Shown piece after piece: positions 4,521 through 63,977 of a stretch of 64,000 bases of DNA (position 1 is the first letter of the stretch; each line of letters begins with the position of its first letter). A model generated the notes under the pieces. The model ran no database searches. It worked only from the letters and a program-made list of their open reading frames with translations, and was not told where the DNA came from. The stretch comes from Escherichia phage phiC120. The position numbers were made by a program, and so were the translations under genes. The stretch is taken from sequence record KY703222; one strand, 5' to 3'.

Positions 4521-4540
4521 ATAGGCAAAAAAAGGTAACA

Positions 4541-7283: not shown

Positions 7284-8452
7284 CAGTATTCCAACGTCCA
7301 GGATATCCTAACTTAAGCGTTAAATTATACCAAGATTATTCGGCTTGGCAAGAAAATAGATATGTTGAACTCGCAGCAACAATAACAACTTTAACCATGC
7401 GAGATTCACTATATGGAAGAAATGAAGGGATTCTTCAATTTTATGACACTAAAAACATCCACACTAAAATGGATGGTAGACAGATAGTTCAAATCTCTGT
7501 TTCAAATTCAAACACACCTCTTCAAGTTAGAACTCGAATTTATGGATGTAGACATTATTCTGTGTCTGTGGACTCAAAAGGTGACAATATTATCGCAATT
7601 GAGCTTGGAACAATACATTCTATAGAGAACCTTAAATTTGGGCGACCATTCTTCCCAGATGCAGGCGAATCTATACGTGAAATGTTAGGTGTCATATACA
7701 AAGACCGTACGTTAATTACTCCGCCAATAAACACTATTAATGCTTATGTTCCTGATATTCCTTGGACAAGCACATTTGATGATTATTTGGCATATGTCAG
7801 AGAATTAGGACTTGCTACAGCGAGTGATAAGTTCGTATTCGTATGGCAAGATATTTTAGGCGTAAACATGATTGACTACGATACTCTTATTGGCCAGGAA
7901 GGCATTAAGATGGTTGTAGGCGAGCCAAATACCGTAGGTCAGTATATTCAAGAGCTTGAGTATCCATTAGTATGGGATTTTACCTGGATGACTAAAGCTA
8001 ACCAATTTACAAGAGACCCTATTAAAAACGCCACGGTATTCGCCCATTCATTTTTAGATACATCTATTCCGGTTATTGTTACAGGTGATGGTGATAACGC
8101 TATTGTTGTGTCAAGATCTGGTGGATATTCCGAAATGACCTATCGTAATGGATTTGAAGAAGCAAGTCGTCTTCAGACAATGGCTCAATATGACGGATAT
8201 GCTAAATGCACTACTACAGGTAATTTTAACATAACGCCTGCTACTAAAATTATATTTGTTGACCAAAAGAACCAATTCAAATCCGAATTTTACGTGGATG
8301 AAGTTATTCATGAGTTATCAAATAACAACTCACAAACTCATCTGTACATGTTTACCAACTCAATGGTGTTAGAACCTGTTAACCCAGTTAAGGTTAAAAA
8401 TGAACTTAAATCTGATTCTACCTCTAAAGAAAATAATTCTACCACAGTCTAA
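7280..8452 (+). CDS. 27: gp27 baseplate hub subunit
   Basis: 390 aa (T4 gp27 is 391 aa); ATGA overlap with gene 51; gene order. Confidence 0.85.
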
Positions 8453-8933
8453 TAAAAAGGTAATGATTCCTAAATTAGGGCTCAAACATTATAATCTTTT
8501 AAAGGACGTTAAAGGCCCTGATGAAAACATGAAAATCTTAGCTGATTCTATTTGTAAAAATATGAGTCCAGCAGATTTTGATTTTGCATGTCTACACATA
8601 TTGGAATTTAATAACAAACTTAAGTCTGAAGTTGAAAAAGACAGATTCACATATAAACTAGATGACGTCTATGTATGCCAACGAACAGAATTCCAATTCC
8701 AAGGCAATACTTTTTATTTTAGACCTCCAGGCAAATTTGAACAATTCGCTACAATCAGTGAAATGTTATCAAATTGCTTAATAAAAGTTAATGACGAAGA
8801 GAAAGAAATTTCTTTCCTTGAGATGCCTGCTTTTGTAATCAAATGGGCAGAAGACCTTTCGACAACTATTGCTATTCCAGGCCCTAATGGTCCTATTAAG
8901 GGTATAGCAGAAATTATTGGATTGCTTGAATGA
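8400..8933 (+). CDS. 28: gp28 baseplate distal hub subunit
   Basis: 177 aa (T4 gp28 is 177 aa); gene order. Confidence 0.8.
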
Positions 8934-10703
8934 AACCTGAAGAAATGAAATCCATGCGTAGAAATAAGGTCATTGCCGATAATAAACCACAAAAAGTAGC
9001 TGCAACAGCAGCTACCGATTCATTAGAAGCATTGAATGATATTTCATCAAAACTAGACGATGTCCAAGCCGCGTCTGAACTCACATCGCAAAGTGTAGAA
9101 GATAAAGGCAACGGAATTATTGAATCAATTGGAGACTTAAAGAATTCTACAGATAATACTGCTGAAGGCACAGAGCTTATCGCAGAAGTTATTGAAAAAC
9201 AAACTGAAGTCACTAAAAGTATAAACGAAGTTTCTAGTGCAATAAGCTCTAAGTTAGACCGATTAGCTACATTATTAGAGCAAAAATTACAAACATCCAC
9301 CGCTATTCAAAATACAGGAGGCACCTCTCTTGAAGTAATTGAGAACGCAATACCTGTTAAAGTGGTTGAGAACGAAACTTCTGATGAGTTGTTTAAAGCA
9401 TTACCTACACCTGAAAAGATTGATAATAAGCCAGACGAAGATTTCTTCCCAGCACCGGTTCAAGAAAGTGCTAATTCTACTTCCGATTCTAAAGGCGGAA
9501 TTAGCTTTAAATTGAGTGATAAAATTGCAATGCTCACCAAAACAGTTCAAGCCGGGTTTAATAAATCAATATCAATTTCAGACAGAATTGCTGGAATGCT
9601 TTTCAAATACACTATAACGGCTGCTATTGAAGCAGCAAAAATGGCCGCACTTATTCTTGGTATTGTTATCGGTATTGATTTATTGATAGTCCATTTCAAA
9701 TACTGGACAGACAAGTTCACTTCTGCCTGGGATTTATTTGATGAAAACTTTACTAAATTCTCCGACGAAGCTAAAGAGTGGGGTAAATTCTTAAGCGATA
9801 TATTCACTTCTATTGACTCGATAAAACAATTGTGGGAAGCTGGAGACTGGGGTGGTTTAACCGTTGCTATTGTCAAAGGTGTAGGAACAGCATTAATGAA
9901 CTTAGGTGAACTAATTCAATTAGGAATGGCTAAACTCTCCGCGTCTATATTGCGTGCTATAGGTTTTGGTGATACCGCGGACGAAATAGAAGGACGTGCT
10001 TTAGAAGGATTCCAAGAAACTACTGGGAACAAATTAAAGAAAGAAGACCAAGAGAAAGTCGCCAAATATCAAATGAAGCGTGACGACGGGGAATTAGGAA
10101 CCGTTTCTAAAGGTCTTGATATGTTACAACGCGGCAAAACATTCGTTACTAACTGGGTTCGTGGTAATGACAATAAAGAAGAGTTTAGTACAAGCGATGA
10201 GCGTGCTGCAGAATCGGCAAAATTAAAAGAGTTACCTGAAGAGGAACGTAAAGAGGCATATATAAAAGCTAATGAAACTCGGGCGGCCTTAGTTAGATTT
10301 GAGGATTATATCGATAAAATCGATATGACTAATCCGGAAAATGCTAAAAACGTTGAGAAGTCTTATGCCGATTTAAGTAAACTTATTAAAGACCCTGAAC
10401 TTAATAAAACTCCTGTTGTTAAAAAGGAATTAGATGCTAGATTTGAAAAGCTAAATAATAAAATGGCTGAAGCAAAAAAAAACTCAGACAACAGTTAAGC
10501 CTGAATCTTCAACTAAATCTCCGGAAGCAAAACAAGTTCAGTCAATAGAGAAAGGACGTGCTTCTGAATCTAAACAACAGCAACCGGTAGCGACGATTAG
10601 TAACACAAATAATGTCGTCAAAAAGAATACCGTAGTCCAGAATATGACCCCTGTAACAAGTACAACGGCTCCTGGAATTTTCCATGCCACCGGTGTTAAT
10701 TAA
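8930..10703 (+). CDS. 29: gp29 baseplate hub / tail-length determinator, interrupted by a frameshift at an A9 tract (522-aa N-terminal ORF plus 73-codon C-terminal frame)
   Basis: 8930..10498 is open; the next frame is open from 10482 to the stop at 10701..10703 just before the gene 48 RBS; removing one A joins them into exactly 590 aa, the length remembered for T4 gp29. Confidence 0.75.
10474..10482 (+). other. A9 homopolymer at the gene 29 frameshift site
   Basis: Nine consecutive A at the junction of the two gp29 reading frames. Confidence 0.8.
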
Positions 10704-10711
10704 GGATTATT

Positions 10712-11821
10712 ATGATTAGTGTAAAAGAAATAGTAGTAGATGCAAAGGATTTAAATAAAGCAATCCCAGTCTCAGAAAGTGCTGGGCAAAGCACTAAAAC
10801 CGAAACAACTACTAAAACTTATGTTGCTCAATTTCCTACAGGAAGAGCAGCCGGAAATGACTCCACAGGAGACTTCCAGGTAACAGACCTTTATAAGAAC
10901 GGATTATTATTTACCGCGTACAATATGTCTGCACGCGATTCAGGATCCCTAAGAAATTTACGTCCGGCATATGCCAGGACTTCATCTAATGGTATCTTAT
11001 CAGATTTAACTGATAACGTGAAAGATGCAGTGACTAAATTCTCAAACGGATTGCTTCCTGCCGGAGCTAATAAATCTACTATAAATAAAACTCCTGTTGC
11101 TAATATCCTTTTGCCGCGTTCCAAATCTGACGTTGATACAACTTCGCATCGTTTTAATGATATCGGTGATAGCCTTATTACTAAAGGTGGAGGTACTGCT
11201 ACAGGTGTTTTAAGTAACATTGCTTCTACTGCAGTCTTTGGTGCATTAGATTCTATTACTCAAGGTCTTATGGCTGATAATAACGAACAGATTTATACGA
11301 CTTCTCGTAGTATGTACGGCGGTGCTGAGAACCGTACTAAAGTCTTTACATGGGATTTAACTCCACGTTCAACTGAAGACCTTATGGCTATTATAAACAT
11401 TTACCAATATTTTAACTATTTCTCATATGGCGAGACCGGTAAATCACAATACGCCCAAGAGATTAAAAGTTATTTAGACGAATGGTACCGTTCAACGTTT
11501 ATTGAGCCTATGACACCAGACGATGCTGTAAAAAATAAGACATTGTTTGAAAAGATTACTGCGTCATTAACAAACGTATTAGTTGTAAGCAACCCTACGA
11601 TTTGGATGGTTAAAAACTTTGGACACACATCTAAATTTGACGGGTTAACTGATGTATTTGGCCCATGTCAAATTCAAAGCGTACGTTTTGATAAAACTCC
11701 AAATGGACAATTTAATGGTCTCGCTGTTGCTCCTAACTTACCATCAACATTTACGTTAGAGATAACAATGCGAGAAATTATTACATTAAACCGTTCTTCA
11801 CTTTATGCGGGGACTTTCTAA
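10712..11821 (+). CDS. 48: gp48 baseplate tail-tube cap
   Basis: 369 aa (T4 gp48 about 364 aa); RBS AAGGA; gene order 29-48-54. Confidence 0.85.
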   Translation: MISVKEIVVDAKDLNKAIPVSESAGQSTKTETTTKTYVAQFPTGRAAGNDSTGDFQVTDLYKNGLLFTAYNMSARDSGSLRNLRPAYARTSSNGILSDLTDNVKDAVTKFSNGLLPAGANKSTINKTPVANILLPRSKSDVDTTSHRFNDIGDSLITKGGGTATGVLSNIASTAVFGALDSITQGLMADNNEQIYTTSRSMYGGAENRTKVFTWDLTPRSTEDLMAIINIYQYFNYFSYGETGKSQYAQEIKSYLDEWYRSTFIEPMTPDDAVKNKTLFEKITASLTNVLVVSNPTIWMVKNFGHTSKFDGLTDVFGPCQIQSVRFDKTPNGQFNGLAVAPNLPSTFTLEITMREIITLNRSSLYAGTF

Positions 11822-17268: not shown

Positions 17269-18093
17269 TTAACAATTTATAGACCAAGTCCATTTAGACG
17301 AATCTAAAGGAAAGTTTTGAATCGTCCACCATGGCTGCATATCGGTTGGTCCTGGGGTTCGCCAGGTATATGGAGTACGTGTTGTCGAGGGGCCACCAAT
17401 TTGATTAGGCCATGCACCTGGACTTGTTGCACCAGATTCTTTAAGCAAATCCGCCAATCGTTTTAAAAGGTCTTCACGATCTGAATCTGAATTATGCTCG
17501 GGTGGAACCAAACGAGATTCAATATCATCCCACGTGTGTACACGTTGTGCAGTACGAGGAATATCATCACGTTCACCACGGGCCAACCAATAAATCGGTA
17601 CATTAAGAATTTCTGCCGCATGGTCACAATGATGAGCTAAATCGTCAACATAACAAATCACGTTATATTTTGTTTTAGCTAGTTCGAATAATTGTTCTTT
17701 TGAAGAATCATGACCACACATCATTACTTCAGAGAAAGCGCCTGGGAACAAAGCGTTCAAATTAAATTGTCTATTCAATCGAGCATCAATTGAATCACCT
17801 AGCGCCGTCACGGCTACAAAATTATAGTCTTCTTTTAGTTTATTGATAACTCGAAGAGCATCTGAATAAGGCGCTAAGTAACGAATAAAATCAGAGCGAT
17901 TATATTTTTCTATTAATTGTTTACCGAGGTTATCGTCGGTATTGAATAGTTTACCAGGAGAAATAAATTTTTCGTCCTGAATCATTTTTAAAATATGTTC
18001 TAATGGAAGATTATATTTTTGGGCAAAATAAGGAAGTCCAGATTGCCAGCTTAAACATACACCATCAATATCAGTCAAAATAGTAGGCTTCAT
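17269..18093 (-). CDS. HAD-like hydrolase motif protein, 30.2 position
   Basis: 274 aa; N-terminal ILTDIDGV resembles HAD motif I (DxDG); later ICYVDD resembles motif IV. Confidence 0.5.
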   Translation of the reverse strand: MKPTILTDIDGVCLSWQSGLPYFAQKYNLPLEHILKMIQDEKFISPGKLFNTDDNLGKQLIEKYNRSDFIRYLAPYSDALRVINKLKEDYNFVAVTALGDSIDARLNRQFNLNALFPGAFSEVMMCGHDSSKEQLFELAKTKYNVICYVDDLAHHCDHAAEILNVPIYWLARGERDDIPRTAQRVHTWDDIESRLVPPEHNSDSDREDLLKRLADLLKESGATSPGAWPNQIGGPSTTRTPYTWRTPGPTDMQPWWTIQNFPLDSSKWTWSINC

Positions 18094-34367: not shown

Positions 34368-34813
34368 TACTTTTTAAAAGTTTTTTGCAAAAGTTTGATG
34401 ATTTCGTCGACGTTGGTTTCATCTACGATACAATGGATTTTTGTTACACCTAAAGTTATACCTTCGTTAGTAGGTTGAGGCTTTACTAAATCTACCTCAG
34501 TAAAGTATTTGAACTCGTCAGGATAAATCTCAAAATAAGTTTCAATTTCACCACCGGCAGAACATACAGTACCATCTTCCATAGTTACACTTACTACGTT
34601 TGGCGTATCGTTATCATAATCAGGTTCCATTCCGTTTACAACAAAACTAGGCCCATGGAGTTCAATCAATTTTAACATCTTAGCGTTATTGTGTGGTGCT
34701 TCTTGAACAAAGTCGTCTTTAAATAAAGGGTTAATGATATAAGATTTTCCGATTTCCATTTTGATTTCCTCATTTGTTGATGTGTTGTAATAAAGATTCC
34801 GCAAACGTCTCAT
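34367..34813 (-). CDS. hypothetical protein (148 aa)
   Basis: ORF in the frd-32 cluster. Confidence 0.4.
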   Translation of the reverse strand: MRRLRNLYYNTSTNEEIKMEIGKSYIINPLFKDDFVQEAPHNNAKMLKLIELHGPSFVVNGMEPDYDNDTPNVVSVTMEDGTVCSAGGEIETYFEIYPDEFKYFTEVDLVKPQPTNEGITLGVTKIHCIVDETNVDEIIKLLQKTFKK

Positions 34814-35021
34814 ATGATTCCAGGTGTTCTTCTTTAATGCGAACTACATGATTATCACCCGAAGAATAGAACATCTGTACGATAAGAGCTTCGTAATCAG
34901 ACGAAATACATGCTACGTTTTCCGGCTTCAGGCATTCATTGTATGTCGCAACTGGGTCAGTGAAAGCTGCAACGTTTTTGCTACCGCAGTAATCCATACT
35001 TCTTTGAATAATAAAAATCAT
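34770..35021 (-). CDS. hypothetical protein (83 aa)
   Basis: ORF preceded by early-type promoter and RBS GAGAGGAAAA. Confidence 0.4.
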   Translation of the reverse strand: MIFIIQRSMDYCGSKNVAAFTDPVATYNECLKPENVACISSDYEALIVQMFYSSGDNHVVRIKEEHLESYETFAESLLQHINK

Positions 35022-51030: not shown

Positions 51031-51663
51031 TCACAGTACGTTAGTTACAAGGGTAATGATTTCTTTGGACACATTAGGGAAGTCAATGTAAGTATATTTA
51101 CCACCGATCTTAATCTTAACATCATTTTCAAGAGAAGTAAACAGCTTTGATTCAGTTTCTGACATGTTGTATGCAAAGATTCTAAGAGCGCCATCTCGTC
51201 GAATTTCAATTTGGCGAATGCCTAGAACTCGTTTAGCGAATCGAACTTCTAAGTTACTACGGTTTTCACCAATTTCTTTAACTTCAACTTTATCTTTAAT
51301 ATTTTCAAAAACAAAGTTTGCTAATTCATGCATTTCAGGAGTAACTCCACGTGCTTTTCTAGTGTTACGTTTCTGAAGAAGTTCTGGAGCATTTTCTTGA
51401 GCAAATAGGTCTGCAGCTTTTTGGATAATATCCATTGCTTCGCCGGTTGCCACAAGTCCATCACCAGATTTTTCGACTAAACCTTTCTTAATCAATACAC
51501 CAATGTTAGAGTTAACAACTGATGCATTGTATTCTGCTTCCAGAGCTTCACGGACATTGGCAGCAGTGGTGAAGTTGTTCTTAATGATATAAACCATTAT
51601 TGCCGCAGTTTTTTCATTCAGAGCGTTTTCAGAAGCTTTGATGATGTAAGTAACTTTAGACAT
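51031..51663 (-). CDS. motA: MotA middle-transcription activator
   Basis: 210 aa (T4 MotA is 211 aa); N-terminus MSKVTYIIKAS... close to remembered T4 MotA; preceded by early promoter. Confidence 0.85.
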   Translation of the reverse strand: MSKVTYIIKASENALNEKTAAIMVYIIKNNFTTAANVREALEAEYNASVVNSNIGVLIKKGLVEKSGDGLVATGEAMDIIQKAADLFAQENAPELLQKRNTRKARGVTPEMHELANFVFENIKDKVEVKEIGENRSNLEVRFAKRVLGIRQIEIRRDGALRIFAYNMSETESKLFTSLENDVKIKIGGKYTYIDFPNVSKEIITLVTNVL

Positions 51664-51731: not shown

Positions 51732-51760
51732 TGTTTTGTGAGAAAAAAAAAATGCACAAA

Positions 51761-51852: not shown

Positions 51853-53178
51853 TCAAAGTGCCTCCAAGTCTTTAGTGTACTCTGTCACAACATCAGTAGA
51901 CTTCCAATACTCATTTTCTTCTTTCTTAGCTTTAGCTTCTTCTGCTAGTTTACGTGCTTCATCGGAAGTGATATGGAAGATGTTAAGACCTACCAGTTTA
52001 TCGACATGTTCTTTATACATTTCGATTTGTGCTAGCTCTTCAGTCAAAGCTTTACGAGTCTTGCCCTGAATCACAATTTCACCACTGATAACTTTTTTGA
52101 TGAAGTGTGCCTTAGCAAAAGCCAGTTTAAATGCTTTTTCAGATTCAAGGATTTTGTTGTCAATACGTTTCTGAACGTAAGTCTTACGGACTTCAACAAA
52201 ATCTTTGATTAAGTCTACTACATTATCGTAGACCGCTAATTTACCTTTTTCATTAATCACTGTGATGTTTTGTGAACGACGTTCGATGAGACTAAAATCT
52301 TTCATGATTTTTTCATGACGTAGCTCTTCATTATCAGGAAGCGAGTACTCTTTACGGAACTTCACCTTAAACCCAAAGCCGTGTTCACCACAATCATCTT
52401 CCCATGAGATTAGACCTTTGTCTTCCAACGGGTCAAGAACCTTACTCACATACGTTTCACGGTCGAATTTATATGGGATTTCAGTTATCTGCATTTGAGT
52501 ACGAGATGTGAACTTATATGTTCCATGAATCTCATATCGCCCATCAACTTCATGCACTTCACCACGGAATTCCGGGAATTCAACTTTTGGCTTAGTGACA
52601 TTTTTACCTTGAAGAGCTTGTAATACAGCCTTTTTGACTGATTTAAAACTATGAGGCAGAATATTTGTTGCGTAACCGGTTGCAATACCAGAGACACCAT
52701 TCAAAAGAACTGTCGGAATAATAGGAAGATAGAATTTTGGTGGAACGTGTTCTTTATCTTCATGAGCTGGAGCATATTCAGTATCTTTATAGACATTATA
52801 GAAATTTTTACTTACACGAGCAAAAATATAACGAGATGCTGCAGCTTTTTGGACTGTTCTAGAACCAAAGTTGCCTTGGCCATCTAACAGTGGATAGTTG
52901 TTGTTCCATGTGTTAGCCATCAATGCACCTGCATCTTGTGCAGAAGATTCACCATGGTGATAACCTAAATCTGCAACACCACCCGCAATTGACGCAAGTT
53001 TATGAAATTTTTCTTTATTACCACGAGCCAAATCTAATGCACGATGAACCACAAAACGTTGAACCGGCTTAAATCCATCAATCATATTTGGGATTGCACG
53101 GTTTTCAACGGTGTACATCGCGTATGCTAAGGCTTCGTTATCAATAATACTTTTTAGATTACGAGAATTCAATTGCAT
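51853..53178 (-). CDS. 52: gp52 DNA topoisomerase II medium subunit (GyrA-like cleavage subunit)
   Basis: 441 aa (T4 gp52 is 442 aa); GyrA-like N-terminus NEALAYAMYTVENRAIPNMIDGFKPVQRF. Confidence 0.95.
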   Translation of the reverse strand: MQLNSRNLKSIIDNEALAYAMYTVENRAIPNMIDGFKPVQRFVVHRALDLARGNKEKFHKLASIAGGVADLGYHHGESSAQDAGALMANTWNNNYPLLDGQGNFGSRTVQKAAASRYIFARVSKNFYNVYKDTEYAPAHEDKEHVPPKFYLPIIPTVLLNGVSGIATGYATNILPHSFKSVKKAVLQALQGKNVTKPKVEFPEFRGEVHEVDGRYEIHGTYKFTSRTQMQITEIPYKFDRETYVSKVLDPLEDKGLISWEDDCGEHGFGFKVKFRKEYSLPDNEELRHEKIMKDFSLIERRSQNITVINEKGKLAVYDNVVDLIKDFVEVRKTYVQKRIDNKILESEKAFKLAFAKAHFIKKVISGEIVIQGKTRKALTEELAQIEMYKEHVDKLVGLNIFHITSDEARKLAEEAKAKKEENEYWKSTDVVTEYTKDLEAL

Positions 53179-60243: not shown

Positions 60244-60260
60244 GCTCCCGAAGGAGCTTA
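60244..60260 (-). terminator. hairpin AGCTCCCGAAGGAGCT between the HNH and GT genes
   Basis: Perfect inverted repeat with CGAA loop. Confidence 0.4.
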
Positions 60261-61055
60261 GGACATCCAACACATTTTATAACCTTTGCAGGTTCTGTTA
60301 GGATTATTTAATGCTTTCAATATATTAGAAGACCCTATACCTAAATACTCCCTTAATTCATAAAGATAGTTAAAATCAATAGTTTCACCTGTTTTTACAC
60401 TTGTGATTCTTATAGGCCTTCTTTCATATTTAGATTTATACAACTCTCTAGTCTTAGCTTTAGTTTCTTCTGACCTAGGAGTGTATGGTTTAAATCCTTT
60501 TGTTTTAAATGTTTCCATTCTTGATTTAGTTATTTTATCCTGATGTTCTTTTGTTTTTACAGGTGCTTTTCGCCCATTCTCCCAAGATAACTTGTTGGCC
60601 TGTATTATTTTATCTATTGCTTCTTGCGTATGAGTTTTACCATAAAATGGATTTAATTCGCCTATACGTTGTGAAGCAATATGTGACATTAATTCTCTTG
60701 TTGCTTTAGTATGTTTTTTACCTTTAAATGGGTTGCCATTTTTAGCAATCCATTCTTTCATAAATCTAGAGTGCTCTTTAGAGAATTCTTGTTTAAGCCA
60801 ATCATAATCTCTAGAATTTCTAGCTCCTATGTAAAAAGCTCTAATAGCCATAAGCATAGAACGGTTCTTATGAATTTTATAAAGCAATAAATGGGCGATA
60901 AAATGCTCTCTAGGGGTCATTTTAACTAGATTTGATTTAGCATTACTCCCGCCCATAGATTTAGGCAAAATATGGTGAGTTTCAGTATAATTAGGAATAG
61001 TGCTGCGGTTTTTAGCCGCAGCGATAAGTTTATCATAAATTTTACGATAATTCAT
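60258..61055 (-). mobile_element. free-standing HNH homing endonuclease with NUMOD-like DNA-binding repeats (Mob-like)
   Basis: ORF 60258..61070 in track; likely start MNYRKIY at 61055 gives a TAATG overlap with the gene 39 stop; HNH motif ETHHILPKSMGGSNAKSNLVKMTPREHFIAHLL; repeated NPFKGKKHT / NPFYGKTHT units. Confidence 0.75.
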
Positions 61056-62875
61056 TATCCTAGCATCCAATCTTTACGGAGTTCAGGGTCGTTACCCATG
61101 AGCATTTCAAATAGTTCTTTCCAATTTTCAGGAAGTTTAACTACGTCGTACACAGGGTTTTGAATCATTTCTTTATATTCATCTCGCTGAAGTGAGCCCA
61201 ATCCCTTGATGTATCGAATACTATGCTTAGGAAGCGTATCTTTAGCTTCTTCATACTCAGCTACAGTATAAAACCATTTTTGAGATTTGCCAATTTGTGC
61301 AATAATTACAGGTGTTTTAACAAAGCGAATACGTCCTTGTTCAAACAATTCAGGCCAATTACTAAAGAAAGCAAGCAAAGCCGGATAGATACTTCCAAGA
61401 CCGTCATGATCGGCATCGGTCATAATTGCAATATTACGATAGTTCGTATTCTCTGCCTTTTCACCAAGAATAAGACCTGTGATAGCACAGATATCGAATA
61501 ACTCTTTGTTCTTCATCATATCAGCATATGACATACCCCAGCTATTCATCACCTTACCACGTAATGGGAATCCGCCGTGTAGTTCACGGTCACGAACATC
61601 AATGAGATATCCAATTGCCGAATCACCTTCTGTTAAGAACAATGTCGTATCTGCATCTTTACCGCATTGGTTAGCTTTAATATGCTTATGAACCTTAGCT
61701 TTAGTTGCCTTTTTAGCTGCTTTAGTTTCTGCAGCCTTTTCTGCTGCCAATTTACGAGCTAATGCTGCTTCAACAATAGGCATAATCAAGGATTCGTTTT
61801 TAAGAAGTGCCTGAGCAATTTTCTTAGCATCTAATTGGATATGATTACGAATATCACCATACGTTGACGTTAAACGTTCTTTAGTCTGAGAATCAAAACG
61901 CATGTTGCTCATGTCTCTAATAAACATCAACATTGTGAGGCATTCTTTAACACGAGCTTTAGTGACTTCAATACCCTTATATTTCTTTTTAATACCCGGC
62001 AAAAGATGTTCGCAGATATCATCCATTACACATTCAACATGATGACCACCATTTTTAGTATGGATGTTATTCACATAAGTTAAATGACGGAAGCCATCTG
62101 GTGATGTTGTGAATGCTATAGAGACTTTATCATTTTCTTGAATGATGTTATCTTCACCAAATTGTTTAGCAAATCGTTTAAAATTACCATCAACCTTTTT
62201 ACCATTAAATGTGAACTTGATATCAGGATAAACGACTGCCAATGTTTGAAGTCGGTCTAAAGTAATATCTAAATAAATTTGAGATAAATTATGCTCTTCA
62301 AATGAAGTGAAATCAGGAGTGAAGATTACTTTAGTGCCTTTACCTTTAGATTTCTTAGAAGACCATGATTTGTTTTCCATTCCGTTTGAACAGTTAACAG
62401 TGATTTCATTTTCGCCATCTGACGTGATGCCTGTAAACAACGTAGAGAAGATATTAGTTAAACTACTCCCGACGCCGTTCATACCACCAGTCTTGCGTTC
62501 AGAATCATCACCAAAGTTACCACCGGCCTTTGGAATAGTCCAGGCTGCTACAGGACCAGGAATTTGTTCACCTGTTTGGTCGGTAACTAAACCTTGAGGA
62601 ATACCACGTCCGTTATCTTCCACCGAAACTTGATTATTTTTAATTTGCACATCAATTTTATTTGCAAACTTAAATGATGTACGAATAGCTTCATCAACCG
62701 AGTTGTCAATAATCTCATCGATTAATTTAACCAGACCAGGAACATATTCAACTTGTTGATATTTACCAAACAAAAAACGCTCGTGGGCTTCTTTAGCAGA
62801 AGAACCAATATACATGCCACTACGTTTCTTAATATGTTCTACATCTGACAGTACCTTAATTTCATTTTTAATCAT
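61055..62875 (-). CDS. 39: DNA topoisomerase II large subunit (GyrB-like ATPase + Toprim), single fused 39/60-type ORF
   Basis: 606 aa continuous; GHKL ATPase N-terminus and Toprim EGDSA motif in one frame; no internal untranslated gap. Confidence 0.9.
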   Translation of the reverse strand: MIKNEIKVLSDVEHIKKRSGMYIGSSAKEAHERFLFGKYQQVEYVPGLVKLIDEIIDNSVDEAIRTSFKFANKIDVQIKNNQVSVEDNGRGIPQGLVTDQTGEQIPGPVAAWTIPKAGGNFGDDSERKTGGMNGVGSSLTNIFSTLFTGITSDGENEITVNCSNGMENKSWSSKKSKGKGTKVIFTPDFTSFEEHNLSQIYLDITLDRLQTLAVVYPDIKFTFNGKKVDGNFKRFAKQFGEDNIIQENDKVSIAFTTSPDGFRHLTYVNNIHTKNGGHHVECVMDDICEHLLPGIKKKYKGIEVTKARVKECLTMLMFIRDMSNMRFDSQTKERLTSTYGDIRNHIQLDAKKIAQALLKNESLIMPIVEAALARKLAAEKAAETKAAKKATKAKVHKHIKANQCGKDADTTLFLTEGDSAIGYLIDVRDRELHGGFPLRGKVMNSWGMSYADMMKNKELFDICAITGLILGEKAENTNYRNIAIMTDADHDGLGSIYPALLAFFSNWPELFEQGRIRFVKTPVIIAQIGKSQKWFYTVAEYEEAKDTLPKHSIRYIKGLGSLQRDEYKEMIQNPVYDVVKLPENWKELFEMLMGNDPELRKDWMLG

Positions 62876-63546: not shown

Positions 63547-63977
63547 TATTGTTCCTTAAAATGTGCTTTCAACATTTGATACAAAGACCATGCCTGGTCA
63601 TTATTTTCGATAGTAATCGTCATCACAGGAAATTCAGACAATTCGTCAAGTTCACCAGAATCTTGCTCTTCGGACGCTTGATACGGATTTCCAACTTCAT
63701 CAAAAAACTCTGCTTCACTAGTAGAGAGCCAGATAAAGTTTTCATCAAGAATATCACCACCAGTTGCGTATCCAACCATGCCAGTAGATGTCACAATTTT
63801 AGTAGGTCGTCCAAGATGGTCAACATCTAATACTTTAAATGGTTCCATGCCAAGACGTCGTGCATAAATCCCATTATCAGTGTGGTTTTTAATAAACTCT
63901 TCTTGGGCACGTTTATCTTTAAATTGGTACCATGAGTTAACGCGGAATTTATTAGCCATTAGTAAGTTTCCTTCCAA
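63546..63977 (-). CDS. hypothetical protein (143 aa; start may be at Met 7)
   Basis: ORF at the window edge; acidic C-terminal half. Confidence 0.4.

Follow-up and report, generated by a model that had tools for sequence, protein, structure and literature searches.

The stretch of DNA analyzed here (hereafter, the window) comprises 64,000 nucleotides of Escherichia phage phiC120 (KY703222) and carries a block of baseplate-hub genes in the order 27-28-29-48-54, which is the order annotated in RB69 as well. Within this block gene 29, whose product gp29 is the tail tape-measure and baseplate hub protein, is read in two pieces lying in different frames (Table 1). The C-terminal end of the first piece, in the zero frame, reads ...NNKMAEAKKNSDNS* in the list of open reading frames, and its stop codon follows shortly after a run of nine adenines (A9). 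The +1 frame is closed by a stop at 10452-10454, is open from 10455 to 10703 and, taken from 10482, translates as TQTTVKPESSTKSPEAKQ...TTAPGIFHATGVN (complete reading TQTTVKPESSTKSPEAKQVQSIEKGRASESKQQQPVATISNTNNVVKKNTVVQNMTPVTSTTAPGIFHATGVN). In the interval where both frames are open a frame shift at any point would fuse the two parts of the gene, and the A9 run is the sole slippery element of that interval. The AAGGA ribosome-binding site of gene 48, whose ATG is at 10712, overlaps the +1-frame stop. The initial annotation of this DNA had described an ORF of 522 aa stopping at 10498, an A9 run at 10474..10482 and an adjacent frame of 73 open codons ending before the ribosome-binding site of gene 48; every one of these coordinates is borne out by the sequence and the ORF list, and the reading of the adjacent frame by its translation.

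Table 1. Features of the gene 29 locus in the window.
Feature	Coordinates	Strand	Remarks
Gene 28, baseplate hub distal subunit	8400..8933	+	stop overlaps gene 29 start
Gene 29 zero-frame ORF, tail tape-measure/baseplate hub protein	8930..10498	+	522 aa, ends ...AEAKKNSDNS*
Interval with zero frame and +1 frame both open	10455..10495	+	translations
A9 homopolymer, site of the frame break	10474..10482	+	sequence, alignments, survey of other loci
Gene 29 +1-frame continuation, 73 codons and TAA	10482..10703	+	translation, PF25671, DNA identity to ESh27
Premature zero-frame TAA stop of gene 29	10496..10498	+	14 nt past the A9 run
Gene 48, baseplate tail tube cap	10712..11821	+	starts 8 nt past the +1-frame stop; identical spacing in RB69

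The two pieces belong to one protein. The Pfam family T4_Tape_measure (PF25671, 590 positions) is matched by the 522-aa ORF at positions 3-521 (E = 2.9e-193) and by the 73-codon piece at positions 519-590 (E = 7.6e-26), so that together they cover positions 3-590, and from this coverage it follows that the frame break sits within one codon of the A9 run. When one A is removed, gene 29 becomes 1773 nt long and encodes 590 aa, in agreement with the fusion that the initial annotation had proposed. The sequence thus encodes a tape-measure gp29 of the T4 type, split by one surplus A in the A9 run; as written in the record, the gene codes for a truncated member of the family, with the tail motif PVTSTTAPGIFHATGVN lying in the +1 frame, apart from the body of the protein. 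By sequence comparison, the 73-codon piece is the conserved C-terminal hub-binding tail of gp29 (...PVTSTTAPGIFHATGVN) and is intact.

By its sequence the phage is not T4 but an RB69-like Mosigvirus of the T-even type, with 98% identity to ESh27 and RB69. About 150 Mosigvirus genomes match gene 29 and the window's first 25 kb at 97-98.5% identity, the closest being Shigella phage ESh27. The repaired 590-aa gp29 differs by four residues from that of ESh27 and by six from that of RB69; its identity is 98% with the nearest cluster representative and about 59% with gp29 of the T4 type. In the alignment of the fused protein to T4 gp29, a check suggested at the outset, residues 2-590 align end to end (PDB 9mkb, 590 aa, E = 3e-212). 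The length of 590 aa, which the initial annotation had given as that of T4 gp29, is indeed that of the T4 protein and is shared by RB69 and ESh27, the phage itself being of the RB69 and not of the T4 kind. The gene therefore resembles gene 29 of RB69 and T4 (PF25671; PDB 9mkb, 9mog) in the gene itself, in its position between genes 28 and 48, in the repaired length and in the C-terminal hub-binding motif, and differs from it in that the ORF of the record is split by one surplus base into 522 aa and 73 codons.

Several observations bear on how far the phage can do without the C-terminal tail. The initial annotation had set against its own reading the prospect of homologues that end near residue 522 and are dissimilar to the downstream codons; none was encountered (0 of 22), all 22 homologues, from 98% down to 35% identity, being 574-600 aa long, and the 73 codons proved homologous and highly conserved. 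On the same alignment, a natural short isoform of 522 aa is ruled out, the homologues being of 574-600 aa throughout. In the alignment of 23 sequences, the last ~15 residues (PVTSTxAPGxFxAxxVN) are among the most conserved of the family, with P581 and G582 invariant and T578, A580, V589 and N590 nearly so in homologues down to 35% identity. In addition, the 220 nt that follow the A9 run are identical to the DNA of ESh27, so that the downstream part of gene 29 shows no sign of decay. In T4 virions the last 20 residues of three gp29 chains have been resolved bound to the gp27 hub trimer (PMC12929629), gp29 being a hub and tape-measure component present in three copies per tail (PMC3004832), and amber mutants of gene 29 are conditional lethals in T4 (bioRxiv 10.64898/2026.03.06.709160). 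Judged from these comparisons, a 522-aa product would be without its hub anchor. The conserved tail, the length of the homologues and the docking to gp27 in T4 together imply that a plaque-forming phage must make the fused protein.

The A9 run distinguishes this genome from its relatives. In the latter the site is GAAGC-CAAAAAGG-CTCAG or GAAGC-CAAAAAAG-CTCAG, with 8 nt between the flanks, and in the window it is GAAGC-AAAAAAAAA-CTCAG. The sites that were read directly (about 16, from RB69, ESh27, OLB35, LF82-1, two metagenome contigs and 11 contigs; NCBI/GenBank, ENA, Logan; JGI) are all of the form C-A5/6-G(G) and belong to a 590-aa gene 29. Since the relatives carry C-A5/6-G(G) and not A8, the window differs from them by a C>A, a G>A and one additional A; with respect to the ESh27-type allele these are a synonymous change (GCC>GCA), a replacement (GCT>ACT, Ala518Thr) and the inserted base, clustered within 9 nt. 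Each of the 40 full-gene matches listed spans 1781 nt against 1782 in the window, and with a 111-nt probe the 60 hits listed of 149 matching phage records span 110 nt against 111; as the best identity of the probe was 97.3%, no listed match shares the A9 run. Neither the run nor a split gene 29 was found among the matches listed of the 149 phage records, in either of the two metagenome contigs (0 of 2) or in further assemblies (0 of 11), and the A9 tract and the Thr518 codon occur in no sampled relative. Of the scans for the A9 allele or its presumed A8 parent, a pattern scan of IMG/VR gave 0 hits, that of metagenomes returned two contigs, both with the RB69 allele, that of GTDB genomes returned 0, and there was no match in E. 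coli complete genomes or PLSDB plasmids. A synthetic repaired A8 allele, compared with 50,697 phage records, still had two mismatches to its best match. Look-ups of exact proteins found no record of the 522-aa ORF or of gp48. One Logan contig, 98.0% identical to the window, encodes an identical gp28 and has a normal gene 29 allele, and many contigs encode an identical gp54, gene 29 being of 590 aa on every one of them.

Runs of A5 (the majority), A6 (the ESh27 type) and A9 (the window) were observed, and by comparison of these alleles the run may have grown in the series A5 > A6 > A7 > A8 > A9, with A7 and A8 as putative steps. Threonine at the position of residue 518 occurs in a 60%-identical homologue (ELKK-TQ...), which makes an A8 allele (AKKT) plausible as a functional parent. 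No ectopic donor that could template the A9 change was found within the window. Split or shortened gp29 calls occur in other public assemblies of the Mosigvirus type, namely in phage vB_EcoM_MM02 (P0003), with a 446-aa call from residue 145, and in one 10-kb JGI contig (P0056, P0058), with gp29 in pieces of 290 aa and 282 aa; broken gene 29 annotations are thus not unique to the window.

The rest of the window was compared with the same relatives. Between the whole window and ESh27 there are 24 indels, and those whose length is not a multiple of three are all intergenic, except that at 10474 and a self-compensating +2/-3/+1 cluster in a divergent part of gene 34. When 92 genes of ESh27 were mapped onto the window, gene 29 alone was broken by a frameshift, the other flags being two real insertions and one moved stop codon. 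A joint comparison with ESh27, RB69 and LF82-1, over 44,108 shared positions, gave 271 differences private to the window, comprising 212 transitions, 55 transversions (a ratio of about 4:1) and 4 indels; among the 240 private substitutions confined to one gene, third codon positions account for 188, and 192 (80%) are synonymous. In their pattern, these differences have the character of natural divergence under purifying selection and not of noise.

As for homopolymers, an A9 run is not improbable for the composition of the window, in which three overlapping matches of the A9 type were counted against 8.2 expected in shuffled sequences. The run at 10474 is the only one of at least nine bases inside coding sequence. 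The other runs of at least eight are a T8 at 1787, in the coding sequence of hoc, whose length is unchanged from that of the relatives, and an A10 at 51743, and there is nothing further. The A10 (51743..51752), which is a T10 on the minus strand and follows a GC-rich hairpin (GGGAGCTTCGGCTCCC), lies between the gene for the topoisomerase medium subunit (51853..53178, minus strand) and an ORF at 51031..51663 (minus strand), has seven bases in ESh27 and looks like the T-tract of an intrinsic terminator. Single-base additions to runs that are private with respect to ESh27, RB69 and LF82-1 are at 4533, 12785, 20279, 20297 and 10474 (A7, A6, T5, C>CC and A9, respectively), all intergenic save that of gene 29.

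Intergenic homopolymer lengths vary naturally, and at several of these runs the window agrees with RB69 and LF82-1, ESh27 being the outlier; a systematic over-calling of homopolymers is ruled out on these grounds. The private indels cluster in non-coding DNA, a small fraction of the window, as is expected of natural variants filtered by selection. A context artefact converting C-A6-G into A9, for instance at modified cytosines, is ruled out too, similar contexts elsewhere in the window being intact (two copies of CT6G, a CA7G and about 20 CA5G/CT5G sites). With no other broken gene and with these contexts unchanged, the frameshift of gene 29 is a lone event, at the longest coding homopolymer.

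Further differences from ESh27 were recorded in the window. An insertion of ~795 nt, absent from ESh27, holds a 270-aa ORF (60258..61070, minus strand) directly downstream of the gene for the DNA topoisomerase large subunit (61055..62875, minus strand), and this ORF, with an H-N-H-like motif (ETHHILPKSMGGSN...N...H) and two NUMOD3 motifs (PF07460, E = 5e-9), looks like a free-standing homing endonuclease. A second insertion, of ~240 nt and upstream of the gene 32 region, holds an 83-aa ORF (34770..35021, minus strand) with no Pfam match, and the sequence at its junction (...TTTCCTCAT...TTGTTGAT) recurs on either side. The counterpart of a 136-aa hypothetical gene of ESh27 (63549..63959, minus strand) lacks the stop at the ESh27 position, its ORF ending elsewhere, and a 6-nt in-frame insertion is present at 17281..17286, near the end of a gp30.2-like gene.

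The initial annotation had left the break to a sequencing error, a genuine mutation or slippage, and all three still fit the locus; a conserved programmed recoding does not, the run being unique to this genome. For the extra A, a miscounted homopolymer or a mutation of very recent date is the likeliest origin, ahead of a recoding signal shaped by evolution. Both an error and a real insertion fit the sequence, and of the two we infer the artefact: we regard it as somewhat probable that the ninth A is an error of homopolymer length in a lineage-specific A8 tract. Gene 29 would then be an ordinary 590-aa tape-measure gene of the T4 type, in which the A6 of the closest relatives became A8 in this lineage through two run-extending substitutions, GCC>GCA and GCT>ACT. 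The ninth A would have been added as a miscall in sequencing, assembly or polishing, at the longest coding homopolymer, and the phage would really carry GCA AAA AAA ACT and make a normal full-length gp29.

A miscount is favored by the fact that the break falls exactly at the A9 run and that its repair restores 590 aa; the difference is of a single base, confined to the run, with intact coding sequence on both sides. Against it, neither other frame-breaking homopolymer indels nor random-looking substitutions were found in the assembly, and the natural private changes, the unchanged T8 and the lack of any other frameshift show no trace of a sequencing technology prone to homopolymer errors. The rarity of consensus errors at A8 in Illumina assemblies also counts against a miscount, as do the clustering of three changes in 9 nt, which is not a simple +1, and the fact that the presumed A8 parent allele was found in none of the collections searched.

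It is unlikely, if credible, that the extra A is real and that the phage is viable through leaky decoding of the A9 run, either by slippage of the RNA polymerase or by a +1 slip of the ribosome. The fuller version of this account, in which the essential tape measure is made only via non-standard decoding and the tract has grown stepwise by substitutions in its flanks, is a shade more doubtful. Polymerase slippage on A9 would generate a mixture of mRNAs, of which those with A8 would encode 590 aa (...AEAKKTQTT...), those with A11 591 aa with an extra Lys, the templated A9 form the 522-aa truncation, and those with A10 a dead-end product of ~539 aa, while the product of the A8 type would also arise if the P-site tRNA-Lys slipped by +1 from its AAA onto the AAA that overlaps it. 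The junction peptides predicted under such a rescue are AEAKK(K)TQTTVKPESSTK, as AEAKKTQTTVKPESSTK or AEAKKKTQTTVKPESSTK, and with either slip a 522-aa tape measure, devoid of its hub anchor, would be made alongside. In T-even phages the late genes are transcribed by the core RNA polymerase of the host. For slippage at A/T runs the original study is that of Wagner et al. from 1990.

The tract at 10474..10482 is an uninterrupted run of at least nine A/T in a transcribed region, the threshold of nine being taken from reviews (PMC1088944; PMC5009743), according to which bacterial RNA polymerase slips efficiently in vivo on runs of nine, and coding regions show selection against runs from this length. 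In the tssM1 gene of Citrobacter rodentium, an A11 run gives rise to mRNAs that contain 10-15 A's, and the two forms of the protein are both produced (PMC4256274); rescue of interrupted genes has been described for disrupted E. coli ORFs, beside the A9 of T. thermophilus dnaX (PMC1088944), and the poly-A tracts of Buchnera and Blochmannia are among the endosymbiont cases described in PMC5009743. With these systems gene 29 shares a run of at least nine A's before a premature stop, a needed C-terminal domain out of frame downstream and the lack of other recoding signals. It differs from them in that tssM slippage occurs in Yersinia too while the gene 29 tract is not conserved in orthologues, slippage here being putative, and in that restoration of its frame needs -1 or +2 nt and not the commonest +1. 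As only three copies of gp29 are needed per tail (PMC3004832), a few percent of full-length protein could suffice. A real insertion is further consistent with an assembly in which there is no other coding indel and the private changes look natural, with the frequency of real +/-1 changes in A-tracts of T-even phages (PMC12633550) and with the four private indels of the lineage, all of them +1 in homopolymers and three of them intergenic, which look like natural variants filtered by selection.

What weighs against leaky decoding, besides the restriction of the A9 run to this genome among the sampled relatives, is the direction of the slip. At A runs the RNA polymerase of E. coli mostly adds bases, and in a GFP reporter no deletion-type rescue was seen at A runs up to eight (PMC6260861), so that rescue of gene 29 needs the rarer +2 event or a ribosomal slip, which would be of low efficiency given that the zero-frame A-site codon, AAC, is not slow. 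No stimulatory elements were found around the A9 run. In addition, A8 revertants are frequent, and a handicapped parent should lose out to them after a few cycles (PMC12633550).

The last point rests on the hypermutable contingency loci of T-even phages, such as the A9 in agt of T2 and the A6 in rIIA of T4 (Gomez, Barrick and Waters 2025, PMC12633550). Gene 29 contains a simple repeat of at least six bases inside an ORF and resembles these loci in its in-ORF poly-A (A9, as in agt) and in the +/-1 slippage and reversibility to be expected of such a tract. It differs in that agt and rIIA are dispensable genes whose OFF state pays under some host defences, whereas gene 29 is essential in T4 (hub and tape measure, with conditional-lethal ambers) and its OFF state should be dead. 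At the A9 tract of T2 agt, indel reads amount to ~7e-4, and the reversion rate of tract mutants is ~1000 times that of a point mutant (PMC12633550). With an A9 this mutable in a T-even phage, A8 revertants should take over from a phage burdened by a real +1 in a few growth cycles, and with such rapid displacement a stable consensus of A9 is easier to explain as a miscount.

We consider it improbable that the extra A is both real and inactivating, the sequenced DNA not being that of a viable clonal phage. Possible sources are a defective or minority variant carried by a co-infecting wild type, a laboratory mutant, or the consensus of a heterogeneous population. It is established in T4 genetics that tail-gene defects are complemented in mixed infection. 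Gene 29 itself is known from conditional-lethal amber mutants (bioRxiv 10.64898/2026.03.06.709160), every T-even lysate contains variants with A-tract indels (PMC12633550), and split gp29 calls exist in other public assemblies (446 aa in MM02; 290 aa and 282 aa in the JGI contig). However, the frequencies of such variants are ~1e-3, far under the consensus level (PMC12633550), a lethal allele cannot reach majority without strong hitch-hiking, and nothing in the rest of the window points to a mixed or defective genome.

An evolved programmed recoding that yields two gp29 isoforms at a set ratio (an anchorless 522-aa form and the full-length protein), as in G/GT or tssM1, is very improbable: a run of slippage length with a zero-frame stop close behind it and the precedent of tssM1 in a related contractile machine (PMC4256274) speak for it, but the run and the split gene are absent from close relatives (among the matches listed of 149) and from 22 of 22 distant homologues, which have a single ORF of 574-600 aa, the flanking sequence matches that of relatives without the run, and the -1 frame leads nowhere, reaching a stop after 21 codons (LRQQLSLNLQLNLRKQNKFSQ*). 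The productive frame of gene 29 is +1 or -2, so that a -1 shift on the A9 run fails to reach it. Folding of the sequence around the run gave z = +0.44, +1.67 and +0.79 against shuffled sequences, the flanks folding no better than the shuffles and showing no stimulatory RNA structure, and no SD-like or GGAGG-like element precedes it. The uniqueness of the run to this genome, the dead-end -1 frame and the lack of stimulatory elements together rule out a conserved programmed frameshift at A9. The likeness to the -1 frameshift of lambda G/GT consists in the tail-morphogenesis block, adjoining or involving the tape measure. The lambda frameshift, however, takes place in a chaperone gene upstream of the tape measure, on a -1 slippery heptamer conserved across phages, while the break of gene 29 falls within the coding sequence of the tape measure, requires +1 or -2 and is found in one genome only.

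Whatever the origin of the A9 run, the gene is to be read as a single 590-aa gp29. If the ninth A is an artefact, as we favor, the effect is on annotation only: a single gene of 590 aa, or a flag for a probable error of homopolymer length, should replace the entry of a shortened gp29 with a 200-nt gap behind it. If instead the A9 run is real, the phage would offer a natural case of an essential virion gene of a T-even-type phage kept alive by slippage of the polymerase or the ribosome; hypermutable tracts, recently described in dispensable genes of T-even phages, would then be known from an essential structural gene as well, and the phage would provide a simple system in which to measure the minimum of tape-measure protein that a phage needs.
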